A stretch of 64,000 nt of DNA. It comes from Candidatus Margulisiibacteriota bacterium (lineage in GTDB: Bacteria; Margulisbacteria; WOR-1; JAKLHX01). The DNA is taken from contig JBAZKW010000011.1 in assembly GCA_041650595.1 (NCBI GenBank), positions 116 to 64,115 of the forward strand. Reading direction: 5' to 3'. Positions within the stretch are counted from its first letter, which is position 1; every line of letters begins with the position of its first letter. The notes below the pieces were generated by a model. That model was not told the DNA's origin. It made no database searches and saw nothing but the letters and a program-made list of their open reading frames with translations. Both the position numbers and the translations under genes were made by a program. Below, piece after piece: positions 22,999 through 61,362 of the stretch.

Positions 22999-23026
22999 TT
23001 ATCGTTAATTAAATCCCGAAATTTCA
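22999..23026 (-). promoter_or_regulatory. Sigma-28-type promoter (TGAAAT-N16-CGATAA)
   Basis: Sense strand aTGAAATttcgggatttaattaaCGATAAt. The -10 box ends 40 nt before the ATG at 22959. Confidence 0.6.
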
Positions 23027-23029
23027 TGT

Positions 23030-23110
23030 AAGAAGATGCTCAGTATGTCCGCGGGAAAAATGGGTTTTTCTACCACCGAAGTCGGCGACATGGTAGCGGA
23101 AGGGATCTAA
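23030..23110 (+). pseudogene. Displaced 3' fragment of leuB (direct repeat copy 2)
   Basis: The last 27 codons of leuB are duplicated. The 4 differences are 3 synonymous changes plus TAG->TAA. Followed by the presumed original leuB terminator. Confidence 0.85.
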
Positions 23111-23139
23111 CTCACTAAGATTTCGCTCAAGGTAGTTAT

Positions 23140-23161
23140 GCGGCGGGTTAAAACTCGCCGC
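23140..23161 (+). terminator. Hairpin GCGGCGggttaaaactCGCCGC, presumed original leuB terminator
   Basis: Stem-loop followed by a T-rich stretch, 30 nt after the displaced leuB stop. Confidence 0.5.
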
Positions 23162-23200: not shown

Positions 23201-23228
23201 TGAAATTGCACTCCTTTTATATCGATAA
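23201..23228 (+). promoter_or_regulatory. Sigma-28-type promoter (TGAAAT-N16-CGATAA)
   Basis: aTGAAATtgcactccttttatatCGATAAg. Followed by AAGGAGG and the TTG start at 23266. Confidence 0.6.
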
Positions 23229-23265: not shown

Positions 23266-23994
23266 TTGACTGCTGGATCTTATGTCGTTTCATGCCTGCC
23301 TAAGTTTGAAGGCCGAACATTCAGGGCATTTACTATAATGCGGGGGGAAAAAATGCCCAAATCAATAAGATTAAGAGACGGCTTCATTGATAATCCTGAC
23401 GCAATTTACAAAGCAACCGGTATAAGCCCTGATATTCAAACAGTTTATGGGATTGATGGCCAGGCGGTAAATAAGAGAACGCTTGCTAAACGGTTGACAT
23501 CGGCTTTAGAAACCCTTAAAACAGATGAGAATTTTCAATTTAGAGGGCAACCCGAGCCCTCTCAGATCGCTAATATTCTTTGCGCGAGGATAGGTCTTGA
23601 GGATGATGTTCTTAATATCAACCTCGCACACATTCTCTTCGATGACAACTCGCGATCATGGGTTATGGACAGGATTGGACTTGATTGCGTCACTCGGAAC
23701 GATGCGAGCGTGGCACTCGCAGTATCATATCTAAAACAAACTACTGGAGGAGATCCTACCCTTTTTGGAAAAAAGTTGTTCCTGTTAATACAGCGGAACA
23801 CACGCGATTCTAATCATCAGATCAGCCAGAAGCCTTTTATACGTGCCGTAACCGCAGGTGTTATTGATATTGCTGATCAGGGAGTGTTAAGTCAAGTAAT
23901 TAGCAGCATGGCTAATATGGAAGTTACTGGCCGTTTCGAGGACGAACTTACGCACCTTTGTATCATCTGGGGTAAAATGTTTCGCCCTGATTAA
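23266..23994 (+). CDS. Hypothetical protein
   Basis: 242-aa ORF. TTG start 7 nt after AAGGAGG. No recognisable motifs. Its 3' end overlaps the dinB 3' end by 32 nt. Confidence 0.55.
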   Translation: MTAGSYVVSCLPKFEGRTFRAFTIMRGEKMPKSIRLRDGFIDNPDAIYKATGISPDIQTVYGIDGQAVNKRTLAKRLTSALETLKTDENFQFRGQPEPSQIANILCARIGLEDDVLNINLAHILFDDNSRSWVMDRIGLDCVTRNDASVALAVSYLKQTTGGDPTLFGKKLFLLIQRNTRDSNHQISQKPFIRAVTAGVIDIADQGVLSQVISSMANMEVTGRFEDELTHLCIIWGKMFRPD

Positions 23995-26120: not shown

Positions 26121-26200
26121 AGAGCTGAAGCTCTGAAGTGCTGAAGCCCTGAAGAACCGGAGTCCGGATGTGCCTGCCTTCAGCGCTTCAGCCTTAAGCG
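26121..26200. repeat. CTGAAG/CTTCAG 8-nt-period inverted array (family C) in the lexA 5' UTR
   Basis: 4x CTGAAG at 8-nt spacing, a spacer containing CCGGAgTCCGG, then 2x CTTCAG plus CTTAAG. A related array lies at 49659-49773. Confidence 0.7.
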
Positions 26201-26202
26201 CT

Positions 26203-26231
26203 ATTATAGTAAACATTTGTTTACCTGTCAA
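26203..26231 (-). promoter_or_regulatory. lexA promoter TTGACA-N17-TATAAT with LexA-type operator GTAAACAaaTGTTTAC (26209-26224) filling the spacer
   Basis: Both hexamers are consensus. The 7-bp-arm palindrome has the AAC-N4-GTT core of Gram-positive-type SOS boxes. Confidence 0.7.
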
Positions 26232-26295
26232 GGCCCCATGGTTATTGATACAAGTTTTTGCCCCCTGGAAGCGATGTATCATTAAGAGAAATAGT

Positions 26296-27174
26296 ATGAA
26301 AACGAATAAGTTGGCATATCTAAAATGGATAATCGGCGAACTTAATGAGGGTTTGAATCTGAACTCGTTCACTAAGAACATTCACTCTCCCCTTTCGTTC
26401 GAAGAAATAGTCCCAGAAGGCAGCGATAAAATGGTTCAGCTGAACAGGCTTATGGTCGCCTCGGAGATCTACCGGTGGATAATGGGCGGAAAATGGCGGC
26501 TTCTCGATCTGGAACATATCTTAAGAAGCCAGGACGCAGAAAAAGAGTTCAATCACAAGCAGATAAAAGAGAATATCAAGGACCTGATAGACGGACAGGA
26601 AGTAAAAGGACCGGAAACTCTAAAAATGTGCCTTTTGCTTACCGGAATAAAGCCGGAAATAATAGACAATGTTAGCTATACCGTCCAAAAAAGATATTTT
26701 TATACCGGAAATTCGAGCAAGCTGTGGTCTTCCATCGGCTACTATGACATGCAGGACAAAAGTATCCATGTAAGTACCGGAGGCAAAAGAGGCGATAAAA
26801 AAGCAGTATTCCCTCTGGAGGACATAATGGAAACAGCTGCCCATGAACTCGGTCATCATATATATATTTCGATCGTTTCAAAAAGGTTTAAGACGCCTGC
26901 CGGCACCATACCCAGGATCAGAAACATCCTCAAAGGCGTAAAGACATCAAAAAGCGATACCGAACACAAGCAATGGACAGGCTTTTATAAAAAAGACTAC
27001 GGCAACGACTGGGAAAAGAACAAAGCTTTGCAAATAATACCAAAAGATGTCTATATCCGGTATGGCCTAGAGAACGAACTTTTTGCGCAGGTCATCGGAG
27101 GGAAAACGACTATATCAAAGACCAGAAGAAAACAACTCGTGGACCTCATAAACCAATCATGTCAGGTTTGCTGA
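26296..27174 (+). CDS. Hypothetical protein with HExxH zinc-metallopeptidase motif
   Basis: Start reset to the ATG at 26296, because the track extension runs through the lexA promoter and repeat. Contains ETAAHELGHHIY. Confidence 0.5.
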   Translation: MKTNKLAYLKWIIGELNEGLNLNSFTKNIHSPLSFEEIVPEGSDKMVQLNRLMVASEIYRWIMGGKWRLLDLEHILRSQDAEKEFNHKQIKENIKDLIDGQEVKGPETLKMCLLLTGIKPEIIDNVSYTVQKRYFYTGNSSKLWSSIGYYDMQDKSIHVSTGGKRGDKKAVFPLEDIMETAAHELGHHIYISIVSKRFKTPAGTIPRIRNILKGVKTSKSDTEHKQWTGFYKKDYGNDWEKNKALQIIPKDVYIRYGLENELFAQVIGGKTTISKTRRKQLVDLINQSCQVC

Positions 27175-28103
27175 TCACCCTTGCGTGACATTTCTTCCCT
27201 GATAAGCCCTGCCAATCCATCATTTATCTTTTCGAGCTCGGCCAGTATCAGCGCTATCTTTTCTTGTCCTTGGAACAAAATAAGCTCCAAAGCCCTCTTT
27301 GCATCGCATGATGAATATTCAAAATGAGTTTCTTCGGGCTGATCAACGACCCATTTACCGTGAAGTCTAAAGAGAGTAGATATCCCTTTCACATACATAG
27401 TTTCACCATCAAAACGGGCTATTTCTTCCGAGTCAACGACTTGTTTTGTCATCGGGATAATCTTTGAAAGTACCGAAGCTATTACATCCGGTTCGGCGTT
27501 TTTATGCGATGCCACATATTTTTGTACTTCGTCAGGGCCTACGCGGGAGATATAGCGCAGGACACCGGGAGCCATAACTCCTCTTAAAGAAAGGTTCGCA
27601 AAAGCTACAGGTCCCAATACAGAGCTCTTGTACACAAAAGGTCTTAATACGCTTTGAGGGGTACGCGGATCGGCCGCAACCCTTGACAAAACTCCAAAAT
27701 GAGAACTTTTTGAAAGCGCTATAAGATCGGGAACCTTTATAAGCCCCCTTGAATCGAGTTCATCATAGGCATAAACGGCAAAAACCGTATTGGACATAGC
27801 AAAATTTAACAGAGCTTGATTACAGTCCGTAAATCTAAAAGATTCCTTTATAACATCGCCGTCAAAATTCAGAAGCCGCAAAGGATCAAAACCGGCGGAA
27901 TATCTTCCGGCAAGGTTTTTTGCGATAAGCTTTTTAGTGTCACCGGCTTCATCAAAAGACAGCGTTTCAAGTTTGCGAAGTCTGGTAAAAGGATCGCTGG
28001 CGATAGTATGCGCGGACCTTCCGGACAGAGGCATCCCAAAAGCCCTTGCATAACGATAGCTGAATAAAGCGCCGGTCTTTGCGGCGATACTACGGATATT
28101 CAT
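27162..28103 (-). CDS. Hypothetical protein
   Basis: 313-aa ORF with no recognisable motifs. Preceded by a sigma-28-type box only 12 nt from the ATG. Confidence 0.55.
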   Translation of the reverse strand: MNIRSIAAKTGALFSYRYARAFGMPLSGRSAHTIASDPFTRLRKLETLSFDEAGDTKKLIAKNLAGRYSAGFDPLRLLNFDGDVIKESFRFTDCNQALLNFAMSNTVFAVYAYDELDSRGLIKVPDLIALSKSSHFGVLSRVAADPRTPQSVLRPFVYKSSVLGPVAFANLSLRGVMAPGVLRYISRVGPDEVQKYVASHKNAEPDVIASVLSKIIPMTKQVVDSEEIARFDGETMYVKGISTLFRLHGKWVVDQPEETHFEYSSCDAKRALELILFQGQEKIALILAELEKINDGLAGLIREEMSRKGDQQT

Positions 28104-28115: not shown

Positions 28116-28143
28116 TTATCGTTGTTTTTTGCGCAAAATCCCA
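28116..28143 (-). promoter_or_regulatory. Sigma-28-type promoter, variant -35 (TGGGAT-N16-CGATAA)
   Basis: Sense strand tTGGGATtttgcgcaaaaaacaaCGATAAtctatcataaacATG. Confidence 0.45.
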
Positions 28144-28150
28144 AAAAAAC

Positions 28151-28178
28151 TGAAATTTCTTATTAATTCAATCGATAA
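28151..28178 (+). promoter_or_regulatory. Sigma-28-type promoter (TGAAAT-N16-CGATAA)
   Basis: cTGAAATttcttattaattcaatCGATAAg. AAGGAG lies before the ATG at 28221. Confidence 0.6.
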
Positions 28179-28220: not shown

Positions 28221-29564
28221 ATGCCGTATATATCTGCGCTCAACCCCATGCCAATGGTCCCGAGAATGGTGCCTGCGGCTGTAATGAACAGGATCGAACA
28301 TCTGACACCGCGGATCAGGGATATGTTTTCCCCGGACGTAAAAGTAAGGCTGACAGCGACAGAAGAGGTTGGAAAGGCATTAGCAGCGATCGGGATCCCT
28401 CAAACCAATACAATGGGAAATCACTACCATGGCAAGCATTCGTGGGGACCTGGATATCCCGCTTCTCTCGCGTTCTTTTCCGCGGCAAACGGCTTGTCTG
28501 TGACAGGTCTTGTCGATCATTACAGCGTATCAGGAGCGCTCGAATTCAGGAAAGCTTCATTTACCCATTTCGGCATACCGGCCACGGTCGGATATGAGGT
28601 AAGATCTCTCATAAGGGACCGGCTTATATGCGGAGGCCTCGATCTCTCAAAGACAGTTATGAATTCACCCGGAAATCCCGGCGAAATATATGTTGTTTTT
28701 CACGGGTTTCCAGGTAACAGAAATTCTTGGCTTGCTCTAGCAAGACAGGACAAATTCAAAAGATATGAGAGTGTGACAGCAAAGATCAACGACAATATCA
28801 GCAGCCGGTGTGCGGGGCTTTCACCCATTGATTTTCAAAGTGTCGTTGCCCTCTCTGAGGAAGGTAATATTACTGATAGACATTTGATGGATGTATTGTT
28901 CGATATGGTATTTGACCACTGCCAAGGTAATTTTGACGATGTAGTTGACAGGATCACAAGCTGGTGGGGAGCGATAACCGCAGACGAACAGGCTGGTTTA
29001 GACAGCGCTAAAGATGATGAGTTCTCAAAATACATGCTAATCGCGCACAGCATGATGAGAGGTAGATTATTGAAGGACGGCAAGCTCGGATATATCGCCC
29101 CGTCCGAGATCGAGGCTCCTTCGCTTGGGAATTTATCGCGGATCGCGGATGAAGAAGACAGTATCCTTGTATATCCGGCATATAAATTTGATATCCCATA
29201 TCTTGAGCATTTAATACCGATGCTTGTACGAGATCACGGGTTTAGGTCCCTATCGTTGATGTTCGACAGGAACACACCTGATGAAAGAGCCAAAATATTA
29301 AGGTGTGCGGAAGAATCTGTTATCCCCGCATTCAGCGGCATGGATGTCAACAATTGGTCGCAGACTTGGGTAAATAAGTTTTCGGATATCCCGGAATTTA
29401 TCGAAGGCGCGCTTGCTCTCGTTGGGCATGAAATCTCGGTAAGGGCGGGAAAACTTGGTCTATTCGACAATACATGGTTCCCCAATACACCGGCAGGATT
29501 AAAGCAAAGATTACAACATTTCGCTTTCTTGGGTTCGCAATGGAAAGACGCAACAGCAAGTTAA
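28221..29564 (+). CDS. Hypothetical protein, possible PHP-like metal-dependent phosphoesterase fold
   Basis: After a roughly 65-aa N-terminal extension, NHYHGKHSWGPG ... GLVDHYSVSG resembles PHP motifs HxH...S.DG and TDHD. The assignment is weak. Confidence 0.5.
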   Translation: MPYISALNPMPMVPRMVPAAVMNRIEHLTPRIRDMFSPDVKVRLTATEEVGKALAAIGIPQTNTMGNHYHGKHSWGPGYPASLAFFSAANGLSVTGLVDHYSVSGALEFRKASFTHFGIPATVGYEVRSLIRDRLICGGLDLSKTVMNSPGNPGEIYVVFHGFPGNRNSWLALARQDKFKRYESVTAKINDNISSRCAGLSPIDFQSVVALSEEGNITDRHLMDVLFDMVFDHCQGNFDDVVDRITSWWGAITADEQAGLDSAKDDEFSKYMLIAHSMMRGRLLKDGKLGYIAPSEIEAPSLGNLSRIADEEDSILVYPAYKFDIPYLEHLIPMLVRDHGFRSLSLMFDRNTPDERAKILRCAEESVIPAFSGMDVNNWSQTWVNKFSDIPEFIEGALALVGHEISVRAGKLGLFDNTWFPNTPAGLKQRLQHFAFLGSQWKDATAS

Positions 29565-31046: not shown

Positions 31047-31074
31047 TGAAATTTTTCATAAAAGCTGTCGATAA
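31047..31074 (+). promoter_or_regulatory. Sigma-28-type promoter (TGAAAT-N16-CGATAA)
   Basis: aTGAAATttttcataaaagctgtCGATAAg. AAAGGAG lies before the ATG at 31126. Confidence 0.6.
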
Positions 31075-31125: not shown

Positions 31126-32250
31126 ATGGCAGTGACCACGGCATTATCGTTCCCCATGCTTAATCGAAATCAATTGATTTTTCAACCGCTTGCTGCAAGA
31201 AAGAACAAATTCGATGTTTCAAAAATGATCCGGCCGGATGCGGTACGCAAAAATATGGGAGAAAAAGGTGAGGCTGTCATGCGGGAAACGATCGACCGCA
31301 TCAGGGCTGCCCGTGAAAGCGGGAAATCCAGGATGTTAACTTTTGGCGCTCACACGATAAAGAACGGATTATCACCGGTATTGATAAGACTGATCGAGGA
31401 CGGTTGGATAACTCATCTTGCCACCAACGGCGCCGGGATAATTCATGACTGGGAGCTGGCTTTTCATGGAGAGACAAGCGAAGACGTGAGAGAAAATACG
31501 TCAAAAGGCGAGTTTGGCGCATCGCAGGAGACCGGTTTTAATATCAATATGGCGATTATTATGGGAGCGTATCATGGTCTGGGCTACGGTGCTTCAATAG
31601 GCGCGATGGTGCATAATGACGGATTTGAAATACCGAACCGAGGGGTTTTACTGAGTGAAGCTCAGTATTTGATGGAAAGCAATCCGGACAAGGCACTTTC
31701 AGCTATCAATTTGTTACAGAAGATTAAGGAATTAGGCTTAAAACACGACCAGTTTGTTTCGGTCCCTCATCAATATAAGGAATACGGACTGCAGGCCGCG
31801 GCATACCGATTAGGGATCCCTTTCACAGGACACCCTATGATCGGCCATGATATTATTTACATTCATCCCGCAAATTCATGCATAGCGATCGGTCAGGCCG
31901 CTGAACGGGATTTCCTTGCTTTTGCACATAATGTAAGCAATCTTGACGGGGGCGTCTATATTTCTCTGGGATCAGCGGTCATGTCGCCAATGATATTTGA
32001 AAAATCGCTTTCAATGTCGCAAAACCTGGCGATACAGAACGGCAGGCACATAGATAATCATTATATGGTCATAGCCGATCTGCAGGAATGCACCTGGGAT
32101 TGGTCACAAGGAGAACCGCCGGAAACCGATCCCGCATATTATCTGCGTTTTATGAAAACCTTTGCGCGCATGGGCGGAACAGCCCATTATATGACAGCCG
32201 ACAACCGCGACTTCTTATTAGCGCTGTGGCAGGGACTGCAAAAGGTCTAA
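31126..32250 (+). CDS. Hypothetical protein, deoxyhypusine-synthase-like (DHS-like Rossmann) fold suspected
   Basis: MLTFGAHTIKNGLSPVLIRLIEDGWITHLATNGAGIIHDWELAFHGETSEDV resembles the bacterial DHS-family core. It has a roughly 60-aa N-terminal extension. Confidence 0.5.
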   Translation: MAVTTALSFPMLNRNQLIFQPLAARKNKFDVSKMIRPDAVRKNMGEKGEAVMRETIDRIRAARESGKSRMLTFGAHTIKNGLSPVLIRLIEDGWITHLATNGAGIIHDWELAFHGETSEDVRENTSKGEFGASQETGFNINMAIIMGAYHGLGYGASIGAMVHNDGFEIPNRGVLLSEAQYLMESNPDKALSAINLLQKIKELGLKHDQFVSVPHQYKEYGLQAAAYRLGIPFTGHPMIGHDIIYIHPANSCIAIGQAAERDFLAFAHNVSNLDGGVYISLGSAVMSPMIFEKSLSMSQNLAIQNGRHIDNHYMVIADLQECTWDWSQGEPPETDPAYYLRFMKTFARMGGTAHYMTADNRDFLLALWQGLQKV

Positions 32251-32329: not shown

Positions 32330-32357
32330 TGAAATCCTCCCCTTTTTTTATCGAAAA
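32330..32357 (+). promoter_or_regulatory. Sigma-28-type promoter, variant -10 (TGAAAT-N16-CGAAAA)
   Basis: cTGAAATcctcccctttttttatCGAAAAtacattagacaggtATG. No SD. Confidence 0.45.
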
Positions 32358-32371: not shown

Positions 32372-33658
32372 ATGTTAACAGAACAACAGATAATTAATCC
32401 CACCAGGCCGATACACTTTCAGGCCGCTAATCGGCTCGGACAGTTAAGGCCTGACCGTGCGGCTGGTGTATTAAATGATATTGCCTCGGGCAATATAGGC
32501 CGCGCATCGATCCTGCTGGTGGATATCAGAGAACGTTTTGGCAGGAGAGCTGTTAACAATATCATGAACAGCATGCCCTCTCAGGTCAAAAGAAGTGCTA
32601 TTGAATTCATCAGCAACATGCCAACTTTTGATGCCGCAAAATTTAGAAAAGATGTGTTAAAAATGCCTGCTGATGAGGCCTATGCTTTGAGCCATCACGC
32701 CTGGCAGAATATATATCCGCTGGCAGATTACAATCATTCAAGATTACATGCATATTACTCCGGATTTTCTGAACAAGATATCCGTTCAATAATTAGCGCT
32801 GCGGACGCGTCACATCAGGCTTTTGCCCCGCTATTTTTTGATGCCGACGCATCAGATACGAACATATCCGAATTTTACAGGTGGGCCGGAGCATTATTCC
32901 CTGCGGACAGTTATGGCTATCATTCCATTTGGGAGAAAATGACGCTTGCCGGCGGAACTTCACAATTCGAGGTCCGCCTGCCTAAAGGCCCGGGTTTTGA
33001 CGGAACCGGCGTGCAATTCCATCAATGTTGCCATACGGCAATTGCAGCCAGAAGCTTTTTCTCTCAACTTGGTATGCCATCAGAAGTCTTGCATTTTATG
33101 CTCCCGTCAAAGTTCACTCATAACGCCGCTGTCATATTCTCTCCTGGAATCATTGGAATAAAAACAACACTTGTTGATGCAAGTCCGTTCGCGCGCGCTT
33201 TTTCGGAGCAGCAGATGGCAAATGTCGTCCCCATGAGCTGGAATCTCATCAGGTCCGACACAAACGATACACACTGTTTCGCAAAACAGATATACATAGA
33301 CGATATGGGCGGCAATTCCCTGCCGTGGTTCAGCCATCAGTTAGGCCATGGCACGAATTTGATTGGGTTTGTTCACGTAGTGGTCAGATACGACCGGAGT
33401 ATCGCAAGTAAAGCCGATAATGAGGGATATACAAGCCTTCTGCCTGAACTGGAGATCATACTGACATCACCTGACAGACGTTTCACTAATTTCGGGCTCC
33501 CTATTCTAAGGGGAAACGGTGATGAGATATCATTTCTGTGGAGCGGCATTCAAAGGGCCCGCTTAGGTGCAACAATGATCGACGCGATCGAAGCTGCTTC
33601 ACTTGAGCCTGCAAGACATTTTATCCAAATGCTCCAAGGATTTAAGATCATCCGCTGA
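32372..33658 (+). CDS. Hypothetical protein with NAT/transglutaminase-like Cys-His-Asp arrangement
   Basis: GVQFHQCCHTAIAARSFFSQLGMP ... THNAAVIF ... TLVDASPF is collinear with the Cys...His...Asp triad of arylamine N-acetyltransferase and papain-like folds. Confidence 0.5.
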   Translation: MLTEQQIINPTRPIHFQAANRLGQLRPDRAAGVLNDIASGNIGRASILLVDIRERFGRRAVNNIMNSMPSQVKRSAIEFISNMPTFDAAKFRKDVLKMPADEAYALSHHAWQNIYPLADYNHSRLHAYYSGFSEQDIRSIISAADASHQAFAPLFFDADASDTNISEFYRWAGALFPADSYGYHSIWEKMTLAGGTSQFEVRLPKGPGFDGTGVQFHQCCHTAIAARSFFSQLGMPSEVLHFMLPSKFTHNAAVIFSPGIIGIKTTLVDASPFARAFSEQQMANVVPMSWNLIRSDTNDTHCFAKQIYIDDMGGNSLPWFSHQLGHGTNLIGFVHVVVRYDRSIASKADNEGYTSLLPELEIILTSPDRRFTNFGLPILRGNGDEISFLWSGIQRARLGATMIDAIEAASLEPARHFIQMLQGFKIIR

Positions 33659-34472: not shown

Positions 34473-34544
34473 GTCATTGCGAGCGTAGCGAAGCAATCCC
34501 ATAGATAAATGGGATTGCTTCAGGGCTTCGCCCTTCGCAATGAC
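34473..34544. repeat. Nested palindromic REP-like element (family A)
   Basis: GTCATTGCGAG...GAAGCAATCCCA/TGGGATTGCTTC...TTCGCAATGAC, between tpiA and pfp. Confidence 0.75.
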
Positions 34545-36241: not shown

Positions 36242-37027
36242 TTAATGCACGCCATCTCTTCTCTCCCGCCGTCCCATATCAAAGCACCCTTTTTCGTCAA
36301 AGCCGGCATGCTCAAGGAATCCAAGAGTATTTTGTATCTCCTGATTTAAGCGTTTATCGGCATCATAGTCGTCTTTGGGATAAATTTTGAATTGAAAATT
36401 TCGAATATAGTCTGCGAACATGCCTCCTCGCAAACCGGCGGCCATAAGCAAAATCAAGGATTCGCTTCCGTACCCTGCGCCCCTGAAATTGACATCTAAG
36501 GGAAACACGACATGATCATCCGATGATACGATGCCGCGATGATGTATCCCATATCTGAAGAAAAGATTGTTAGCTCCTTTCGCGTGTTCATAAAGACCGT
36601 GACCGATAACAATATCGCCAAAATCATTATGTCTGACGGATATCGAAAACAGATGCGTTTTTCTTGTTTTTACGCGTGAAAGAGGAACAAAATATGCCAA
36701 CTTTACCCTTCCATGAGTAAAAACTGTGCAGCAACCGGGATCAAGATCCTTTCCGACCCGAATATTCCCTATCCAATCGGAGCGGAACGTTCCGAACATC
36801 GCATCAGAAAATCGTGTTGCAATAGTTCCAACTTTTTCGGCACAAGTTATTTGTTCTCTTCCAAAATCAACTTCTTTAATGAATCCCGGAGTTAAAGGAA
36901 ATAATCCGGCGTTCCTGTCTTTTGGTCTCGGCGCCATTCCAGCATAAAGAGAAGTTTCCGCAAGCGGCAAAGGACGGAACCCTGACACTATAAAAGAGCC
37001 TCCACACCCGCTCACGCGCTCCACCAT
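36242..37027 (-). CDS. Hypothetical protein, possible GNAT-fold acetyltransferase
   Basis: VNFRGAGYGSESLILLMAAG (R-x-x-G-x-G motif A) and LGFLEHAGF near the C-terminus. Overlaps the upstream gene by 16 nt. Confidence 0.5.
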   Translation of the reverse strand: MVERVSGCGGSFIVSGFRPLPLAETSLYAGMAPRPKDRNAGLFPLTPGFIKEVDFGREQITCAEKVGTIATRFSDAMFGTFRSDWIGNIRVGKDLDPGCCTVFTHGRVKLAYFVPLSRVKTRKTHLFSISVRHNDFGDIVIGHGLYEHAKGANNLFFRYGIHHRGIVSSDDHVVFPLDVNFRGAGYGSESLILLMAAGLRGGMFADYIRNFQFKIYPKDDYDADKRLNQEIQNTLGFLEHAGFDEKGCFDMGRRERRDGVH

Positions 37028-38232
37028 TGCTTCGCCTCAAAATCAGGAACATCCCCCACCCTTCTTCCGCTCACAAGATTCGCCCATTGCAGTATGCCTA
37101 GGCTGCCGTCAAGCCGCTGCTCGCAACTAAGATATACATGCGGCGGGAGTTCATCAGCGTCCATGGGACTGTGGTTCAGATAAAAACATATCCGCCTGAC
37201 ATTCTTATAACGCGAAAGATTGATGCCGAATGTTTCTATGTCGTTTGTGCCGTCACCCATTATGATCACGAGCGTATTTTCTTCCGGATTGATGTCGCTT
37301 AATATTCTGCCAAGCGATTGGACCACTGCCTGCGCTTTAGTTATTTTAGATAGCAATACAAATGTCGCGCCCGGGATAAGAAATGTACCGGGATATACAT
37401 GCCACCACCTGAGCATGTTATCGACAACGGATTTTGCAAATCGCCGTGAATCGTCCTGCGTTGGATCATACGCATCGAGAACGCTCTTGGTATCCTGGAG
37501 TTCAAGGACAAGCGCACTCCCCACATCGTATATATAAGGGCCGCCGAATGTCGGGCCGATCAATCTTGACAGCAATTTAAATTTAAAAACCTCGCCTTGT
37601 ATCCCTTTACCCCATAGGCCATACTTACGTAATATTTCAAATCTTTTTAAAGCGCTCCCAAAAGCATCGTTGATTTTCTTCAATTCAGGTTGCTTAAATA
37701 AGTTGACAAACGTGCCTTTCGGTTCGTCAGCTTCAGCATGAAAAGCCCTCATAAATGCCAGCATCATGATGTGTGCGGCATCTTCCCTGAAACTCAGCGA
37801 CCAGCTGGGTTCGATTCTCGAAAATGATTTTTCTCCGTCCGGCCGATAATCCTCCTGTGTTCTTCCTGTCGCGGCAATCATATGGTAACGGTCCGCCCAG
37901 TCCATTGCTGCAAGAGCATTGCGAAAAATCGTTTGCGATTTCCTCATTTCAGATTCGGGATCGCCGGAATTGACCAGCAAAGCATTATCAGGATTTGAAA
38001 GAAAACTAAGCGAAGCCGCATGAATATCTTCCCTGATCGGTTTATCCGTCCTTTCCGTCAAAGTCCCTGTATTGTCGGAAACAAGTATCACATGTTTGAT
38101 CACTTCTCCGGCAGGCCAGCCCGTCACTTCGACAAGGCGCAAATCAGTATCTATGAGGCGCAAATCTGAAGCCGTCCCATGCGCAGCACGCAGCATTCTT
38201 GGTGCACCTGTTCTGTTCATTACAACTCGCAT
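37012..38232 (-). CDS. Soluble HAD-superfamily protein with P-type-ATPase-like DNTGTLT and GDGTND motifs
   Basis: VSDNTGTLTE (compare DKTGTLT) and MGDGTNDIE (compare GDGxND) lie about 280 aa apart. No TM segments. Confidence 0.6.
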   Translation of the reverse strand: MRVVMNRTGAPRMLRAAHGTASDLRLIDTDLRLVEVTGWPAGEVIKHVILVSDNTGTLTERTDKPIREDIHAASLSFLSNPDNALLVNSGDPESEMRKSQTIFRNALAAMDWADRYHMIAATGRTQEDYRPDGEKSFSRIEPSWSLSFREDAAHIMMLAFMRAFHAEADEPKGTFVNLFKQPELKKINDAFGSALKRFEILRKYGLWGKGIQGEVFKFKLLSRLIGPTFGGPYIYDVGSALVLELQDTKSVLDAYDPTQDDSRRFAKSVVDNMLRWWHVYPGTFLIPGATFVLLSKITKAQAVVQSLGRILSDINPEENTLVIIMGDGTNDIETFGINLSRYKNVRRICFYLNHSPMDADELPPHVYLSCEQRLDGSLGILQWANLVSGRRVGDVPDFEAKQWWSA

Positions 38233-38275: not shown

Positions 38276-38303
38276 CTATCGTAAGTTTCCGGAAGGAATT
38301 TCA
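38276..38303 (-). promoter_or_regulatory. Sigma-28-type promoter (TGAAAT-N16-CGATAG)
   Basis: Sense strand tTGAAATtccttccggaaacttaCGATAGa. AAAGGAAAG lies before the ATG at 38232. Confidence 0.6.
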
Positions 38304-38323: not shown

Positions 38324-40027
38324 CTAAAACTTACACCCTGCAGGAATTGCCCGATCCATAGCGTATTGTATTTCGTCAAGAATCCTTTGTCCCGTATTCA
38401 TGTCTGCTAAGCGCAATCCTGCCTTTCTTAACATCTCATAAACAGTTGCCAAATCAATATGCTCTGCCTGTCCTGATGCAAGGACATCAACCATCGCAAG
38501 TGTTTGTGAAGCATTCATTTGGAAATTGCCTACCTCTAGAATAATAAGATTGATTTCTTCACCGACCATTTTTTTGAGCTGTTGAAAAAGCTGATACATT
38601 GCAGATGGAGTGCCGGGTCGAGAAACAATTCTTGATATTTCCTCAATCCCCATTAGAAGCAGCTTAAGTGACGGATAACCTTCGCGCCGCTTGCCGAAAG
38701 AAAGCGGCAGCTCTCCGCGCAGGAATCTTTCTGCATCTGTATGATATGGCCTGCTTTGTTCCGAGCCGATGAATGAACTGATCCATTGCCTTGCTGTGCT
38801 CTGAGCTTTTTCCTCAAAATTGTCCAAACCTTTTTCCTCATACAAATAAACAAGCCCACGGACAATTCCGTGGAAAGCAACGCTTGGGTTTGAAAGGCGA
38901 GATAGAGTGCGGGCTTGATATTCCATATGTCCAGCAGCAATTTTGTCCCCTTTAGGCCTGACATTATCGACTGCCATAAGATCCACGAGAGAACGGACAA
39001 ATCTGGGTATGCTTACACCTGTCTTTCTTTCTCTTATTGATATAAGACGCAATTCATGCCTATCCTCCGCTGATTTTCTATAGATAGTATCGCCTGCATT
39101 AAGGAAATAATTTGCTATTGTTGTACCGCCTTTGGCCTCAGGTTCGTAATGATAAACAATGGAAGCAATGACCTCTGCAAGGACATCCGCAACATCTTCC
39201 TCGGGAAGTTTGACCAGTCGGCTTCTTTCGCCGCAAAACTCCCAGCGCCAGAGGGTCCCGTGTTCAAAACCCAGCTCTTCATAACCGCCGAGAAATTGTG
39301 AAATCCCGATCGTATATTTTTGATCGGCGACTGTCACATTACGTACTCCATAAGGTTTAGGAAGGAATCTTCGCCTTCCGATGCGCCAATAATGTTCAAA
39401 ATATTGCTGATTTTTGGCAATTGTTTCCGCACGCATTTTATTTTTGTTGCGCGGGATCTCCACGACAAGCTGCGGATTGCCGTCAATATTCACCTTCAGC
39501 AACTGCGAAAATGATCCCTGCTTAAATAACTCGAACTCTATTGTGTTCACATCAGGGCTAACTCCAAAAGGATGCCACAGCATTTTATCAGCCAACAGTT
39601 CATGTGCAGCTTTCCTTCTCAGATTGCCCAATTCTTCTCCGTCTAACATGTTTTTAGGGTCCGGATCATATGGTTCCGGAAAAGGTGTTATGTAATTCGT
39701 CTGAGCTCCTTCTAAAGAGTCATCATCTATTTGAGCTTGCAGAATCTGTTGCATAATAAGATGGTTTTGACCACTTTGTAATATCAATCCCCTTTTTCTT
39801 GAAATTTCACTGACAATTGCCGGTGATAGAGCAGGATGAACGAGCAGCTCTTCTAAAACAGCACTCAGCGCCGCTTTTTGCTTTGGAGAAATACCTCCCA
39901 GTTTGGCTTCGACTTTTGGCATGACCCGAGTAGCATTAAGCGATCTGCTGCCCAAATCAATATGTGAAGCTCTAAGGACTTGCGGCGTAAAACCTGATCT
40001 ATGACCCATACAGCTTGTAACTCTCAT
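38324..40027 (-). CDS. Hypothetical protein
   Basis: 567-aa ORF with no secure motifs. Its N-terminus resembles those of the two downstream genes. Confidence 0.55.
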   Translation of the reverse strand: MRVTSCMGHRSGFTPQVLRASHIDLGSRSLNATRVMPKVEAKLGGISPKQKAALSAVLEELLVHPALSPAIVSEISRKRGLILQSGQNHLIMQQILQAQIDDDSLEGAQTNYITPFPEPYDPDPKNMLDGEELGNLRRKAAHELLADKMLWHPFGVSPDVNTIEFELFKQGSFSQLLKVNIDGNPQLVVEIPRNKNKMRAETIAKNQQYFEHYWRIGRRRFLPKPYGVRNVTVADQKYTIGISQFLGGYEELGFEHGTLWRWEFCGERSRLVKLPEEDVADVLAEVIASIVYHYEPEAKGGTTIANYFLNAGDTIYRKSAEDRHELRLISIRERKTGVSIPRFVRSLVDLMAVDNVRPKGDKIAAGHMEYQARTLSRLSNPSVAFHGIVRGLVYLYEEKGLDNFEEKAQSTARQWISSFIGSEQSRPYHTDAERFLRGELPLSFGKRREGYPSLKLLLMGIEEISRIVSRPGTPSAMYQLFQQLKKMVGEEINLIILEVGNFQMNASQTLAMVDVLASGQAEHIDLATVYEMLRKAGLRLADMNTGQRILDEIQYAMDRAIPAGCKF

Positions 40028-40062: not shown

Positions 40063-40090
40063 TTATCGGCAATAAGGCGTGTGGATTTCA
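40063..40090 (-). promoter_or_regulatory. Sigma-28-type promoter (TGAAAT-N16-CGATAA; full GCCGATAA)
   Basis: Sense strand tTGAAATccacacgccttattGCCGATAAa. Confidence 0.65.
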
Positions 40091-49658: not shown

Positions 49659-49773
49659 AGTGCTGAAGCGCAGAAGATCTGAAGCAGGGCAGAAATTCAA
49701 AATCACATTAAACTAAAGCAGACACCTCATCAATTATTACTTCAGCACTTCAGAGCTTCAGTTCTTCAGCGCT
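49659..49773. repeat. CTGAAG/CTTCAG 8-nt-period inverted array (family C)
   Basis: CTGAAGcgCAGAAGatCTGAAG, a roughly 55-nt spacer, then CTTCAGcaCTTCAGagCTTCAGttCTTCAG. It shares the CTTCAGcaCTTCAGagCTTCAG string with the lexA copy. Confidence 0.7.
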
Positions 49774-56204: not shown

Positions 56205-59200
56205 TTAATTCCCGTGTCTTTTACTATTCCAGTACTTCTTTACATCCTCCAGATTAACACCCTGTTCATGACATCTCCTGTAGCATTCAACCAACAGAGG
56301 ATGTCCTGCAACAAATGGTGCCGTCTGATGAAAGAACCCTGCACCTTTCTTTTCCGCCGGGTCTAAAGGAACATCAAGCATATGGTGAACACCGGATATC
56401 GCGCTGCCTCCTACTTTTTCGGCCAGGTAAGCCATCATTATAAGTTCATACCATGGTCGCAACCTGCCCCTTGCCCTTGATTCATCCGCAGTATATCCGT
56501 AAACAGAAAACGGCGTAGTCAATATTCTGTGTGTATCAACTGTACCTGCTCCGGTCCATGCTAATTCAGCGCCTTCTTTTTCGAGCAAAAATTTTGTAAA
56601 TTCCCATATCGCCGTGGGCCTCCACTGTGAGGGAGCGCCGCCCAGAGCGATGATCGGCCGTGCATTACTTGACTCCTGAACGCGTGTAATATGCCCCATT
56701 TTGCGGAACACCCCGTGCCTGTCAAGCATAAACTGCTCGACTCCATCTCCCCACTTTGAAGCCACAAAAAGCTGTTCGGTATATCCGTGATTTACCATCG
56801 CAACAGCTTCGAGCATGTCTCTGCCTGTTTTGCCTCTCAAAATTTCCGGAAGGAATTCGGGATTGTGCGGAAGTCGATCTCGCTTATCCTTTATTTGCGC
56901 AATATTACCCGCATCAAGAGGAACTCTGTACAAGCTAAGGAATGTGCCAAGCGACTGCAGTGCAGCGAATGTTGATGTTCCGTCAAGCGAATCTAATCCC
57001 CCTACAAGCATGCCATTAAGTTTTAAAGCTTCTATCATATTACCGACAAAAATACGGTCCTGTTCCTCGCCTCCGTGGAATGATAGTAAAGCTTTGGCAA
57101 GCGGACCTATCGGGTGTGCCGGATCATGAAGAGCCTTCATTATAGATTCATGAACAGCCGTTTCGCCTCTAGGATTATATGCAATGGCGGTAAACAGCTG
57201 CTCGGTCAGCCAATCGACATATTCTTGGGTATCTCCTGCAAAGTTTGCTACTCCGTGCGGAGCTTCAAGGGAAGCCCAAGGGAATAAAAGCCTGAAAACA
57301 GCAGCCATTGTCGGAACTACTCCAAGGATTCTTCGTATATCTCCGGGCATACCGGCACCTTTCATTGCTGTAAGATAATCACATAATGACTGATTCCTTC
57401 TGTTTACCTCAATGGTATGATGAAAAGCAAATTCATCAGATGATACCCTTACATTTTTAGTGACAGGCTTTGCCTTGATATCCCCGGAAGGCGCAAGCTT
57501 TTCAGTCATCCTTTCCACAGGCTCCTTAGCTCCGCACACCACAACATATTTTGCGCTGGAATTGAACAGATCATCACTGGACAGTTCTTTAACAAAATCC
57601 GCACCTGATTTCTTTGTTCCGTCGTCGCTTATCACGCATATCGCGCCCGCGGAATTTTCTACAATATGATAAAGAGAAAGGATATCTAGTGCTGAAGCGG
57701 TCGATATTGAAGATCCTCCATTAATAGCCATTTCATAATCGGTCGCGATAGGTATATAGCGTTCGCGCATCTTGACATCTTTTCTTTCCAGCATTGCCAT
57801 GATTATGGGCTGAACCGCAGGCGGATAATCCGAAATAGCCCCCAAAACGGCAAATTGCGAACCTGTTGTTTTCCTTTCCAGAACCGGCTCGTCTATGTCT
57901 CCTCTTCGCCGTTGGGCGATCGTTCCATCATGCATACGGATAAAATCCATAACTTTGAGCATATCGTCGCCCGGCTGCAGGGCAACGCACACTAATCCGT
58001 CGTTCAAAGAGTGATACATCACAAAAGTATTTACCAGATTCCCGGGAACAACATCCCCATCAAAGACAGAAACCGTTGAGACCATCATATTGTTGTCTCT
58101 TTCCACCAAATTATTGCCCTGGAGAGGATTGATAACCAATTGATATCTTCCATTGGGATTCTGGAATTCCGGACTTATGCTGTTGCTAAAATACACCCTA
58201 CCGATGTTATCAGCATCTGCAGTCAGCTTTATGCTATCTACCATTGCCTGCCTGACATTAGCCATCCTCTGGGCCGGATAACCAAATGTCCTAGTCGAAA
58301 GGTTTATTGTGTCCGCAGCAGCCGAGATCAGCGAGGAAATCGTACCGCTTATCGGGAAAATCGCCTTTGCTTGTCTTCCTAGTTCTGCATTTATCAGAAG
58401 GGCATGTTCTAATTTCCCGGCAACAACACCCTGCTGGCCGGAGTAGGAAGGCTGTTTCCTTGAGCGCAGTCCCAGGCACATCATTGCGCTCGCCGGCATC
58501 TGTAAAGTTGAGTACAGTAACTGACCAAGGATTGTTTCGTCAGCCCTATCCATTTGCATTCTCATCGAGGCATGTCCGTTTGCGGCCACCGCTTTTTCAA
58601 GGTCTTCCATTTCCCGCCTGTGCAGTTCGTCAATTTCTTTGTCGCCTGTGTCTTTCACCGAAACAAATGTAAAATATGACGGATTGGCAAGTAAAAGCGG
58701 CATTGTTCTTTTTGCCTCTTCATATCCAATAACTGTTGTATAAGTATCTACTCCAGGCTTGCCTCGCGATTCATTTTCCATTTGTTTAAAGTGGTCTACC
58801 AAACCGTCAAGACGAGGGTCCATCAAGACCATTACATTTGTCGGTGCTGTCTCTCCTAAATGCTTGTTCATCGCCCCCCATACTAATCCGACATTTTGGA
58901 GTACCAGATCAAGCACATCTTTGTTTTCTTCAAACAACTTTTTGTATGCGGCCAGCAATTGATCCCTTAGTCTTGCGGCATCGTCAGAGCTCCTTCTTGA
59001 CTCAAGCAGCAGCTCATCGATCTCCGTCAGCGCTGCCATGATCAATTTGCTCCGTTCTATCTGTTTATCAGGCTTATTAGGATCCTGAACTTTTTCTCTG
59101 ACTTTCGCGGACACGGCCGCCATATCTGTCTGCATCGCGGCAGCCCCTTTAAATAACGCTTCGGCATTATGCCCGGCTCTCTTCATCATCATTGCCATCC

Positions 59201-61289
59201 ACGCTGTAAGACAGCTGAATCTGGAATCAACCTTCTCCGATAGTTCCAAATGAGCTATGTCGGGATTTTTTCTGAGCAGTCCGGAAAGAGGGCTTGTACG
59301 TCTTGGAGCGCATGCAACTACTGTATGTTTATGTTGAACTCCGTTTTTGAAAAGAACCCCTGTCAGCGCATTTGTACACCTTGTCTGTCCGGAGGAAGAA
59401 GCCGTTATAAGATCTGCCTCCCCCATCCCTTCTCCTACAAATTCAAGTGCGTCAGATAATGCCGCAGCATCCGGCTGATCAAGAATTATAACTTTCCCTT
59501 CATTCCCAGGATTTGCAGCGATTTGGGTAAGCACTTTATGGATGGCCGTAAAAGCATTTCCTGATCCTCCTATCCCAGTAATAAAATGAGGCCCGCTACC
59601 GCGCCTTTCTGCTTCCATCTGTTCAATATCCGGTAACATAGCCAAGGTCTCCTGAGGTGATGTTATCCAACCGTGTTTGGTTGTTTTTGGCGGAGCTTCG
59701 ACAGCAAGTTGTACGCCCACACATAAAAGATCGCCAAGCATCTGATTAAATCTTAGAGGATCAGAGATTCTTTGCGTCCCGGAACCGATGGCTCCTTCTA
59801 TTTCCAAACTCAATCCACCTTGAGAAAATGAAGTTGTTTGTGCAATCTGATCTTTCTTTATCTCTTTGGACCTCAAAGGGGATGCCACCTTTGGTTCATA
59901 ACAACGTGAAAGAATTCTACCCAGGGCTAATGTATATACAACCTCTCTTCCTACTTGCATGGCATCCGGACTTTCCGCCATGCTTAGCGTTGTCGGCCGG
60001 CTGTTTGTTGCCAGCGCTTTACCATAAGCTTGCGCATTGGTGGCGTTGAACTTGCTCATCCATAAACCGTCAAGCTTTGGGTCTGGACAATTTTCGATAA
60101 CGATATCCGGACCCGTTCCGAAACCTCTGCGGAAGACTACAAAACCATGGTCGCCTTCTGCCCAATTTTGTTCGTCAGTATGATGAGCTCTTGGCAACAC
60201 CGCACAATCGATCAGCATTTCTCCTGTAGTGTTATTCATCGCACTGCAAATTTGCAGTCTCATCCATTTCACAAAATTTTCCCACTTTTGTGAATAAATA
60301 GCCTCTATAAATGTATTGCGCCCTTTCCCCGCCAAAACTTGCATTAGTGCGGCTTTTATCTCTATAGGATGGTCATCAGGCCCCATCAAACTGTCTCTTG
60401 CGTCCTTTGCTCCTTCTATGAGTTGTTGTATATCTATCCCTGCAAGTGTCAGAGGAAGAAGTGCCGCAGGAAAAAAGGATTCAGCATCAGCCAACCCTCT
60501 GGGAAGCGTAACTATACGGCAGTTATGTTTTTGGGACTCATCAACTAAATATCTATTGCTGCTTTGCAGCATAATGACCATATGCTCCAATTTGTCCGCA
60601 TCATTAAATTTTGCCACTAGTTCTTCGTAGCACATTGCCATAGCTGTTTTCTTCTGCCCTTCACTTGTCATGTTCCCCATAACTATCATTCCGGCTTTAG
60701 TGAAATCAATCTTGTTTTGCAACTGTCTTAAATTTCCCTCCGTCACAAAGTGGATCCTTGGAGAATTTTCACCATTTGTTCTGTCATTCCGATAAGTATC
60801 CACCAGCGCATCATGGGCCATTTTTATACCAACTTCGTCCGGCGCTATCACAAGAATGTCTTCCAGTCCTTTCAGGGCATCCGCAGCTTCCCGGATCTCT
60901 TGAATCACAGGTAAAGAAACCGTCTCCTCCAGATTAAACGCATTATCTCTCATCACACTCTGAGTTATCCTTCTGTCCTTCATAACGGCCAAAGTATCTT
61001 CTATTTCTTTTGGTGTCGCTCCTCTATCTCCTCTGATGATAGGAAGCCCCTGACCGTGTAGAGCATTGGCAATATCCAGCGCTATACCGGCAGAACGGCT
61101 ACTCTGAAATTTTGGGATCATTTGAGCAGAAGCTGCTTGAGCAGCTCCAATCTCAGCCTGCACGGGACAAAGTGTGAATGTCCTTCCTCCCATAGGAATA
61201 GGAAATTTTCTCAGGTGTTTCGGGACAAGATTTCCACAAACATTGCTCATAAGACCAGGATACATTTTAGTGAATACTCGAGCAGCCAT
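56205..61289 (-). CDS. Giant multi-module protein: degenerate PGI-like + PGI-like + degenerate FBPase-like + unknown C-terminal module
   Basis: 1,694 aa from the ATG at 61289, 8 nt after AAGGGAG; the track uses TTG at 61307. Motifs are listed in the findings: GIGGS / SSSGQT / DSRFSCLTA / QMENESRGK / QQGVVAGK, and NPLQGNN / RYI...GG / ENSAG. Confidence 0.7.
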   Translation of the reverse strand: MAARVFTKMYPGLMSNVCGNLVPKHLRKFPIPMGGRTFTLCPVQAEIGAAQAASAQMIPKFQSSRSAGIALDIANALHGQGLPIIRGDRGATPKEIEDTLAVMKDRRITQSVMRDNAFNLEETVSLPVIQEIREAADALKGLEDILVIAPDEVGIKMAHDALVDTYRNDRTNGENSPRIHFVTEGNLRQLQNKIDFTKAGMIVMGNMTSEGQKKTAMAMCYEELVAKFNDADKLEHMVIMLQSSNRYLVDESQKHNCRIVTLPRGLADAESFFPAALLPLTLAGIDIQQLIEGAKDARDSLMGPDDHPIEIKAALMQVLAGKGRNTFIEAIYSQKWENFVKWMRLQICSAMNNTTGEMLIDCAVLPRAHHTDEQNWAEGDHGFVVFRRGFGTGPDIVIENCPDPKLDGLWMSKFNATNAQAYGKALATNSRPTTLSMAESPDAMQVGREVVYTLALGRILSRCYEPKVASPLRSKEIKKDQIAQTTSFSQGGLSLEIEGAIGSGTQRISDPLRFNQMLGDLLCVGVQLAVEAPPKTTKHGWITSPQETLAMLPDIEQMEAERRGSGPHFITGIGGSGNAFTAIHKVLTQIAANPGNEGKVIILDQPDAAALSDALEFVGEGMGEADLITASSSGQTRCTNALTGVLFKNGVQHKHTVVACAPRRTSPLSGLLRKNPDIAHLELSEKVDSRFSCLTAWMAMMMKRAGHNAEALFKGAAAMQTDMAAVSAKVREKVQDPNKPDKQIERSKLIMAALTEIDELLLESRRSSDDAARLRDQLLAAYKKLFEENKDVLDLVLQNVGLVWGAMNKHLGETAPTNVMVLMDPRLDGLVDHFKQMENESRGKPGVDTYTTVIGYEEAKRTMPLLLANPSYFTFVSVKDTGDKEIDELHRREMEDLEKAVAANGHASMRMQMDRADETILGQLLYSTLQMPASAMMCLGLRSRKQPSYSGQQGVVAGKLEHALLINAELGRQAKAIFPISGTISSLISAAADTINLSTRTFGYPAQRMANVRQAMVDSIKLTADADNIGRVYFSNSISPEFQNPNGRYQLVINPLQGNNLVERDNNMMVSTVSVFDGDVVPGNLVNTFVMYHSLNDGLVCVALQPGDDMLKVMDFIRMHDGTIAQRRRGDIDEPVLERKTTGSQFAVLGAISDYPPAVQPIIMAMLERKDVKMRERYIPIATDYEMAINGGSSISTASALDILSLYHIVENSAGAICVISDDGTKKSGADFVKELSSDDLFNSSAKYVVVCGAKEPVERMTEKLAPSGDIKAKPVTKNVRVSSDEFAFHHTIEVNRRNQSLCDYLTAMKGAGMPGDIRRILGVVPTMAAVFRLLFPWASLEAPHGVANFAGDTQEYVDWLTEQLFTAIAYNPRGETAVHESIMKALHDPAHPIGPLAKALLSFHGGEEQDRIFVGNMIEALKLNGMLVGGLDSLDGTSTFAALQSLGTFLSLYRVPLDAGNIAQIKDKRDRLPHNPEFLPEILRGKTGRDMLEAVAMVNHGYTEQLFVASKWGDGVEQFMLDRHGVFRKMGHITRVQESSNARPIIALGGAPSQWRPTAIWEFTKFLLEKEGAELAWTGAGTVDTHRILTTPFSVYGYTADESRARGRLRPWYELIMMAYLAEKVGGSAISGVHHMLDVPLDPAEKKGAGFFHQTAPFVAGHPLLVECYRRCHEQGVNLEDVKKYWNSKRHGN

Positions 61290-61334
61290 AATATGATCTC
61301 CCTTCAATAGTGATTATAATTCCATCTACATGTT

Positions 61335-61362
61335 CTATCGTTAAAAAAAACCGGGGATTTCA
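61335..61362 (-). promoter_or_regulatory. Sigma-28-type promoter (TGAAAT-N16-CGATAG)
   Basis: Sense strand gTGAAATccccggttttttttaaCGATAGa. The -10 box ends 45 nt before the ATG at 61289. Confidence 0.6.

Follow-up and report, generated by a model that had tools for sequence, protein, structure and literature searches.

Transcription units under sigma-28 (FliA/SigD/WhiG) carry promoters of the consensus TAAA(GTTT)-N11/15-GCCGATAA. Alternative-sigma promoters with a CGATAA element are well known, as is the use of sigma-28 outside the flagellar system, by the late genes of Chlamydia such as hctB and by WhiG in Streptomyces, and sigma-28-dependent secreted proteins occur in Campylobacter. Among the extracytoplasmic function (ECF) sigma factors, sigma-W reads TGAAAC-N16-CGTA and PvdS TAAAT-N16-CGT, and the hrp-box of plant pathogens, read by HrpL, is GGAACC-N16-CCACNNA. 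In Bacteroidota, the primary-sigma promoter has the consensus TTTG/TAnnTTTG. Here we analyse an element of the form TGAAAT-N16-CGATAR (the box; variants are named as such) in a 64-kb stretch of DNA from Candidatus Margulisiibacteriota (contig JBAZKW010000011.1), this whole stretch being referred to as the window. A first-pass annotation had described nine copies in the window as a scattered alternative regulon of local orphan genes with sigma-28-type promoters. Judging from its placement and anatomy, the box very likely functions as a promoter, and it represents a real alternative-sigma promoter class, distinct, as that annotation held, from the sigma-70 type of the neighbouring genes. The sigma-28 label is only partly supported, and the regulon is not a local one of orphans: the box marks the Margulisiibacteriota and Saganbacteria as a whole, and elsewhere it also drives ordinary enzymes.

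The box resembles the sigma-28-type promoters of Chlamydia and Streptomyces in preceding genes unrelated to motility, but theirs are small, developmental regulons, whereas the box regulon is large, extends over two candidate lineages and is enriched in fast-evolving, lineage-specific genes. With the hrp-box it shares a rigid sequence in front of scattered, lineage-specific and fast-evolving genes, in which the promoter and N-terminus are kept and the rest is swapped; the two differ in that their sequences are unlike, that the box targets include housekeeping-type enzymes, and that no gene of a secretion system was observed in the loci of the box lineages. As in Bacteroidota, a promoter sequence identifies an entire phylum, but there it is read by the primary sigma factor, whereas the box coexists with canonical TTGACA/TATAAT promoters. 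What is new is the combination of a lineage-diagnostic, nearly invariant motif with a non-flagellar regulon of very large size, many leaderless transcripts and a tight tie to genes that diverge or turn over fast.

Box sites in the window

Exact matches to TGAAAT-N16-CGATAR occur seven times in the window, against 0.01 expected from dinucleotide-preserving shuffles. Allowing one mismatch adds the site at 32330–32357 (+), with CGAAAA as −10 element, and two mismatches are required for that at 28116–28143 (−), which has TGGGAT as −35 element and is the weakest of the nine. All of them lie where they had first been annotated and keep the 16-nt spacer. They are all intergenic, though intergenic DNA makes up 5.4% of the window (P ~4e-12), and each stands in sense orientation upstream of the neighbouring open reading frame (ORF). 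The distance from the end of the second hexamer to the start codon is 12–51 nt; the earlier figure of 12–45 nt was right at its lower end and too small at its upper end, since the site at 31047 lies 51 nt from its gene. A GGAG-type Shine–Dalgarno sequence, previously ascribed to the longer gaps, is indeed present in the seven longer leaders and is missing from the two short leaders, of 12 and 14 nt. A feature absent from the earlier annotation is a pyrimidine 6 nt past the hexamer in eight of the nine sites (T in seven), with a purine at 7 nt, also in eight. Rfam and tRNA scans of the window gave no matches. The window is contained in a 318-kb metagenomic contig (ENA ERZ27247363 k141_938828), from which the flanking DNA was taken, and a stretch of 18 kb of this contig past the window holds no additional boxes.

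The housekeeping genes have promoters of another kind, in agreement with the first-pass annotation: lexA matches TTGACA/TATAAT at 12/12 positions, pyk at 11/12 and tpiA at 10/12, and nusA has a similar box. Because these neighbours carry canonical sigma-70 promoters, the window holds two clearly different promoter classes. We considered whether the box could be the promoter of the lineage's primary sigma factor, and rejected this on the evidence of lexA, pyk, tpiA and nusA. Since the canonical promoters coexist with the box, we assign the latter to a second sigma factor.

Distribution across lineages

The window's NusA shows 89% identity to that of one metagenome-assembled genome (MAG; locus L001), 72% to two others and 63% to a Candidatus Margulisiibacteriota MAG. 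Among 80 NusA loci from diverse bacteria, exact boxes were present in L001 only, and a weight-matrix scan of the same loci found a further site, TGAAAT-N16-CGATAT, in a Margulisiibacteriota locus (L004). In the NCBI taxonomy, Margulisiibacteriota and Saganbacteria (WOR-1) stand side by side in the Cyanobacteriota/Melainabacteria group.

A broader search made use of pairs of boxes arranged back to back within 30 nt (≤30 nt), a pattern for which we estimate about one chance match in 596 Gb, and covered one genome per species for 185,579 species. It returned 40 loci, of which 18 are labelled Margulisiibacteriota, Margulisbacteria or Marinamargulisbacteria, nine Saganbacteria/WOR-1 and eight 'uncultured bacterium', and several genomes contributed three loci apiece. 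The remaining five, from Faecalimonas, Tyzzerella, Acidobacteriaceae, Phycisphaerae and Dysgonomonas, are probably chance matches. When the pairs used for their selection are set aside, the 35 lineage loci (238 kb) still contain 18 exact boxes, a density of 0.75 per 10 kb, compared with 0.47 per 10 kb in the loci that had not been selected by the box (L001–L004) and 0.85 in the window and its flanks. Unrelated genomes, used as a control, gave one box in 1.16 Mb. As at least 27 of the 40 pair loci belong to Margulisiibacteriota or Saganbacteria, we consider the box to be lineage-wide, at about 0.5–0.9 copies per 10 kb. By extrapolation rather than by count, this would amount to approximately 100–200 box promoters per genome of a few Mb. 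We found no description of the promoters or sigma regulons of these lineages in the literature searched.

Promoter anatomy and rigidity

The anatomy of the box was derived from 87 aligned lineage sites, and variants were counted in 388 kb of lineage DNA. The aligned sites are A/T-rich upstream, their −35 element is extended to TGAAATTT, and the sequence of the spacer is not conserved. CGATA is followed by A (62%) or T (32%) and thereafter by A-n-A; when copies are counted, the invariant CGATA is completed by A 63 times, by T 31 times and by G 6 times. Six nt past the hexamer, T is found most often (51%), and 86% of the sites have a purine at 7 nt. The consensus was found in 94 copies, 70 of which had been chosen by the search pattern, against 0–1 copies of each single-base −35 variant, and this contrast also holds among the 24 unselected copies. 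TTAAAT, TAAAAT and TGAAAC have 0 copies each, and no −10 CGT variants were found against 63 copies of TGAAAT-N16-CGATAA. The spacer is equally rigid: next to the 94 copies with 16 nt there is a single one with 15 nt, and a 17-nt spacer does not occur.

In 29 of the 87 sites the first start codon falls 4–10 nt past the hexamer, compared with 9.8% at random positions (P = 2e-9), and ATG accounts for 25 of these 29 close start codons, compared with 41% in the control. At other lineage sites a Shine–Dalgarno sequence begins 4–8 nt past the hexamer. The pile-up of ATG codons indicates leaderless messenger RNAs in the relatives, and in loci L202–L240 about a third of the box-driven genes are apparently leaderless. 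Because the leaderless ATGs and the adjoining ribosome-binding sites agree with each other, the transcription start is predicted about 7 nt past the hexamer, which is where the −10 element of a sigma-70-family promoter would place it. Gene callers that need a ribosome-binding site may misplace the starts of leaderless box-driven genes.

Sites and target genes

Two exact boxes diverge at 22999–23026 (−; TGAAAT-N16-CGATAA, predicted start ~22992) and 23201–23228 (+; predicted start ~23235). The former lies 39 nt from the start codon of a 230-aa target (22267–22959, −), with an AGGAGG Shine–Dalgarno sequence, and the latter precedes a 242-aa target (23266–23994, +) with a TTG start after AAGGAGG; neither protein has a Pfam or NCBIfam match. 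A second divergent arrangement is formed by the variant box TGGGAT-N16-CGATAA at 28116–28143 (−), 12 nt from an ATG with no Shine–Dalgarno sequence, and an exact box back to back with it, 7 nt apart, at 28151–28178 (+; predicted start ~28185). The variant is the least certain of the sites and is backed by its position, the equivalent divergent pair in a syntenic relative (L255) consisting of two perfect boxes; its spacer is also found in a canonical box of L214. It precedes a 313-aa target (27162–28103, −) with no family match and 45% identity to its L255 counterpart. On the other side of the pair is a 447-aa target (28221–29564, +) that has only eight homologues (38–46% identity) and is predicted to adopt a PHP-domain phosphoesterase fold: its AlphaFold2 model (mean pLDDT, the predicted local distance difference test, of 81) matches the PHP-domain phosphoesterases 3o0f, 2yb1 and 9etk with a probability of 1.0. 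In relatives, 0–4 nt separate the gene for its homologue from a preceding class II aldolase gene.

The exact box at 31047–31074 (+; predicted start ~31081) lies 51 nt from the start codon of its target, with a Shine–Dalgarno sequence. This 374-aa protein (31126–32250, +) belongs to the widespread, uncharacterised GSU2086 family, has no Pfam domain and shows ~60% identity across many, also distant, phyla; as its homologues number more than 7,700, the term orphan does not apply to it. The gene is elsewhere usually followed by a SIS-domain gene (e.g. in L252 and L254) and here stands between pyk and tpiA, a context that suggests an unrecognised sugar-phosphate enzyme. Next to it, the variant box TGAAAT-N16-CGAAAA at 32330–32357 (+) lies 14 nt from the ATG, with no Shine–Dalgarno sequence, of a 428-aa target (32372–33658, +) that is nearly an orphan, just 15 distant relatives being present in a set of 1.84 billion representative proteins.

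An exact box ending in CGATAG at 38276–38303 (−; predicted start ~38269) precedes a two-gene unit (36242–38232, −) of 406-aa and 261-aa ORFs that overlap by 16 nt. Neither product has a family match, and HAD/P-type-ATPase-like DNTGT and GDGTND motifs can be recognised by eye in the 406-aa protein. Just downstream of ligA, the exact box at 40063–40090 (−) carries the full GCCGATAA that had been reported for it, and a box occupies the same position in L001 and L255; its 567-aa target (38324–40027, −) has one close homologue and is nearly an orphan. The last exact box, at 61335–61362 (−), again ends in CGATAG and precedes a 1694-aa target (56205–61289, −) with two degenerate glucose-6-phosphate-isomerase (PGI)-like domains (residues ~119–344 and ~535–723) and a class-1 FBPase-like C-terminus (~1426–1670). 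All three domains score far under the family cut-offs, and the fusion could be a pseudo-enzyme or a scaffold.

The palindrome TTTGCGCAAA occurs twice in the window, and both copies adjoin or sit within boxes. The one at 28128–28137 lies within the spacer of the 28116 site, 13 nt upstream of the −35 element at 28151, and the other (61375–61384) is 12 nt upstream of the −35 element of the 61335 site. In a marine Margulisbacterial single-cell genome, TTTGCGCAAAAG fills the spacer of a canonical box (L214 2730–2741). These positions hint that the palindrome is a candidate operator, through which an extra repressor might act on some members of the regulon.

The description of all targets as orphans or as recognisable only by fold thus holds only in part: seven of the nine first genes have neither a Pfam nor an NCBIfam match, but the description fails for the GSU2086-family protein and is further limited by the degenerate PGI and FBPase domains of the 1694-aa protein. 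A confident Pfam match is missing in eight of the nine box-driven genes, compared with three of the 40 other genes of the window (Fisher P = 3e-6). We detected no paralogy among the nine targets of the window, nor homology between these and 87 targets elsewhere.

Divergence and turnover of box-driven genes

The syntenic contig L255 has the gene order dinB, lexA, 292-aa gene, box pair, pyk, tpiA, pfk, two boxes, ligA, and allows box-driven and sigma-70-driven genes to be compared within one block. The sigma-70-driven genes share 84–94% identity with those of the window (tpiA 89%, pyk 92%, lexA 94%, pfk 94%, ligA 84% and dinB 87%), against 48% for the box-driven 447/441-aa protein and 45% for the 313/213-aa protein. 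The other box-driven genes have been swapped for unrelated ones: a 387-aa gene stands in place of the 406-aa gene, a 160-aa gene in place of the 567-aa gene, and a methyltransferase gene in place of the pair coding for the 374-aa and 428-aa proteins. The boxes themselves persist, in L255 at four equivalent positions and in L001 at the one behind ligA, with divergent spacers and downstream genes. After ligA, the 567-aa gene of the window and the 386/387-aa HAD-like genes of L001/L255 share the promoter, the leader and approximately 35 codons, and beyond these they are unrelated, an exchange that resembles the terminal reassortment of type III effectors. In this one syntenic block, box targets are set apart mainly by fast divergence and turnover. 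The lack of a Pfam domain is not the reason for this divergence, because the 334/292-aa protein, which has neither box nor Pfam match, stays 89% identical. The 334-aa protein (26170–27174, +) has a HELGHH zincin-like motif.

Across the lineage, we estimate from family tables that a Pfam domain is present in about 30 of the 85 box-driven proteins scanned. The families include PFK, archaeal-type phosphoglycerate mutase, PRPP synthetase, ClpP, sugar epimerases and the glycoside hydrolases GH16/26/48/77, as well as three calcineurin-like phosphoesterases, PPDK-like and radical SAM proteins, an S8 protease, a Ser/Thr kinase and an LRR protein. Since the Pfam-bearing targets span so many families, the regulon is heterogeneous, with many enzymes of carbohydrate and phosphoester metabolism and a heavy enrichment in proteins that cannot be annotated.

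A motif [RK]-[AST]-x-H recurs at residues ~20–40 of unrelated box-driven proteins, in the variants LRASH, LRAAH, YRAPH, GRSAH, KTIH and RRTTH, which accompany acid-poor, basic N-termini; the motif is weak and alignment-dependent. Its carriers are encoded at 38324–40027, 37012–38232, 27162–28103 and 22267–22959 in the window, at 11805–12965 in L001, and at 12337–13500 and 13621–14103 in L255.

Which sigma factor reads the box

In our view, the box is the promoter of a group-3 sigma factor related to sigma-28 (FliA/SigD/WhiG) whose −35 preference has shifted to TGAAAT, a reading to which we give a probability of roughly 0.5–0.6. Of the original sigma-28 label, the −10 hexamer and the geometry stand: the −10 core CGATAA/CGATAT is identical, the T-rich extension of the −35 element (TGAAATTT) is comparable to the TAAAGTTT of sigma-28. 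The start predicted for the box from the T/purine step, the ATG peak and the Shine–Dalgarno sequences would fall ~7–8 nt past the hexamer, the position expected for sigma-28. The sigma-28 promoter of P. aeruginosa fliC reads (−36)TCTAAAG(−30)...(−15)GCCGATAA(−8) (PMC12784957), and the distance from AAA to CGATAA, 17 nt, is the same in the box.

Several points weigh against this assignment, and the −35 element is the part of the label that did not stand. It is an invariant TGAAAT, with GAAA in place of TAAA, that is, G as the first base and an invariant flanking T, and TAAA-type variants number 0 against 94. Moreover, GC before CGATAA is not preferred in the 87 sites. Neither the window nor, by tblastn with FliA, sigma-70 and SigW queries, the 388 kb of lineage DNA revealed a sigma gene of any group, sigma-28 included, and the ~94 targets include no flagellar or chemotactic gene. 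Likewise, no flagellar, chemotaxis or FlgM family is among the Pfam families listed for 85 box-driven proteins (25 of 31 families in one of the tables), and the 388 kb contain no flagellin. A scan of genome_contigs for a box followed by ATG and INxN gave at least 120 matches, mostly due to chance and with no flagellin among the matches listed; it yielded the lineage loci L099, L128 and L131. A strict pattern of box and flagellin N-terminus gave one match in genome_contigs, taken as chance, and five non-flagellin matches in metagenome_contigs, a pattern that Margulisbacterial flagellins might not fit. Because it matched no flagellin, a flagellar link is unsupported. The size of the regulon and the rigidity of its motif, nearly invariant at ~0.5–0.9 copies per 10 kb and with many apparently leaderless targets, are above what is typical for sigma-28, and ECF promoters (sigma-W, PvdS) share the geometry of the box.

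A rival explanation is that the promoter is of the same kind but is read by an ECF (group 4) sigma factor or by a novel sigma group, which we regard as distinctly less probable. TGAAAT-N16-CGAT is collinear with the sigma-W and PvdS promoters, sharing their spacing and matching the sigma-W −35 element at five of six positions; stringent ECF promoters typically show such near-invariance and a spacer fixed at 16 nt, HrpL offers an ECF precedent for a rigid box before scattered, fast-evolving genes, and the missing flagellar link among the targets would be no surprise. However, the ECF hallmarks AAC (−35) and CGT (−10) are both absent, the box having AAT and CGA instead (TGAAAC 0 vs 94 copies, CGT 0 vs 63), and the −10 element is conserved over 6–7 bases, longer than ECF elements and equal to the CGATAA of sigma-28. 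In addition, a sigma/anti-sigma operon was seen behind none of the ~94 boxes, with only about one such site expected per genome. An explanation without any sigma factor, in which the box is a transcription-factor site or a conserved terminus of mobile gene cassettes, could account for the extreme invariance and for the replacement of genes downstream of kept boxes, but appears very improbable: the box consists of two unlike hexamers 16 nt apart with an unconserved spacer, has A/T-rich DNA upstream and a pyrimidine–purine step at the expected start, and is followed by leaderless ATGs at 4–10 nt or directly by Shine–Dalgarno sequences, whereas flanking repeats and a recombinase are absent and the G+C content is that of the surroundings.

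A further reading concerns the targets rather than the sequence of the box, which would mark a repertoire of exported effectors co-expressed with a flagellar-type or other secretion apparatus, with the N-terminal signal kept and the cargo swapped; in its working it would be comparable to the HrpL regulon or to the secreted proteins under sigma-28 in Campylobacter. In its fullest form, which we consider doubtful, the box would be the address label of a reshuffled exported or partner-directed repertoire of 100–200 genes per genome, read by a sigma-28-derived sigma factor uncoupled from flagella, with cargo fused behind a module of promoter and ~35 codons; the bearer of such effector logic would be a free-living or symbiotic sister lineage of Cyanobacteria. 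The N-termini of the window's box-driven proteins are indeed acid-poor and basic (1.2 D/E per first 30 residues vs 3.5 in others, P = 1.7e-4), the promoter and ~35 codons are common to unrelated genes at one locus, as in type III effector terminal reassortment, and the targets, about two-thirds of them apparently without Pfam domains, diverge or turn over fast and include LRR, Ser/Thr-kinase and TPR proteins. Lineage-wide, however, the N-terminal bias is weak (net charge 2.9 vs 1.8, with a noisy control), the targets include the cytoplasmic PFK, ClpP, PRPP synthetase and iPGM as well as Sec-type lipoproteins, the lineage loci examined show no gene of a secretion system, and in the AlphaFold2 model of the 447-aa target residues 1–60 are confidently predicted helices that pack against the PHP fold rather than a free signal. 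Because the lineage-wide bias is weak and the N-terminus of the PHP protein is modelled as folded, an export signal is for us a minority hypothesis. As to the role of the box-driven genes, the conservative reading would be a general alternative-lifestyle or stress regulon, and an effector-like exported repertoire the more novel one.

If the box is read by a sigma-28-related factor, as we prefer, the mechanism could be as follows. A dedicated alternative sigma factor of the sigma-70 family, conserved across Margulisiibacteriota and Saganbacteria, would direct the holoenzyme to contact TGAAAT near −35 and CGATA(A/T/G) near positions −12 to −7, with high stringency and over a fixed 16-nt spacer. 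Initiation would take place at the purine ~7 nt past the second hexamer, giving leaders of 6–45 nt in the window and truly leaderless messenger RNAs in many relatives. In this way, a large and plastic non-flagellar gene set, interspersed among sigma-70-driven housekeeping genes, would be placed under common control.

Other repeats and neighbouring features

Two further types of repeats were observed in the window. An 8-nt unit, CTGAAGNN, forms tandem and inverted arrays (9 matches vs 0.07 expected) at 26124–26192, in the intergenic region between lexA and the 334-aa gene, and at 49662–49770, between groES and a ROK-kinase gene. Hairpins resembling repetitive extragenic palindromes, GAAGCAATCCCA-N8-TGGGATTGCTTC within longer CATTGCGAG...CGCAATGAC palindromes, are found in the intergenic regions upstream of an ABC-2 permease gene (14938–14969) and of pfk (34490–34521). 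At the edge of the window, a 615-aa ORF (62131–64000) represents the C-terminal portion of a protein that extends beyond the window (L243 10688–19159), measures 2823 aa and lacks Pfam domains; its gene has no box within ~100 nt upstream.

Significance

Margulisiibacteriota and Saganbacteria are uncultured siblings of Cyanobacteria, and a nearly invariant promoter of 12 bases provides a genome-wide handle, from sequence only, on one co-regulated set of genes in every MAG of the group. The box also aids annotation, by supporting the calling of start codons and start sites, those of leaderless genes included. Should the sigma factor prove to be related to FliA, no larger sigma-28 regulon outside the flagellar system would be known. 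Many of the unknown genes of these bacteria would not be randomly regulated but would answer to a common, dedicated sigma factor, and the box flags those genes that diverge or get replaced fastest.

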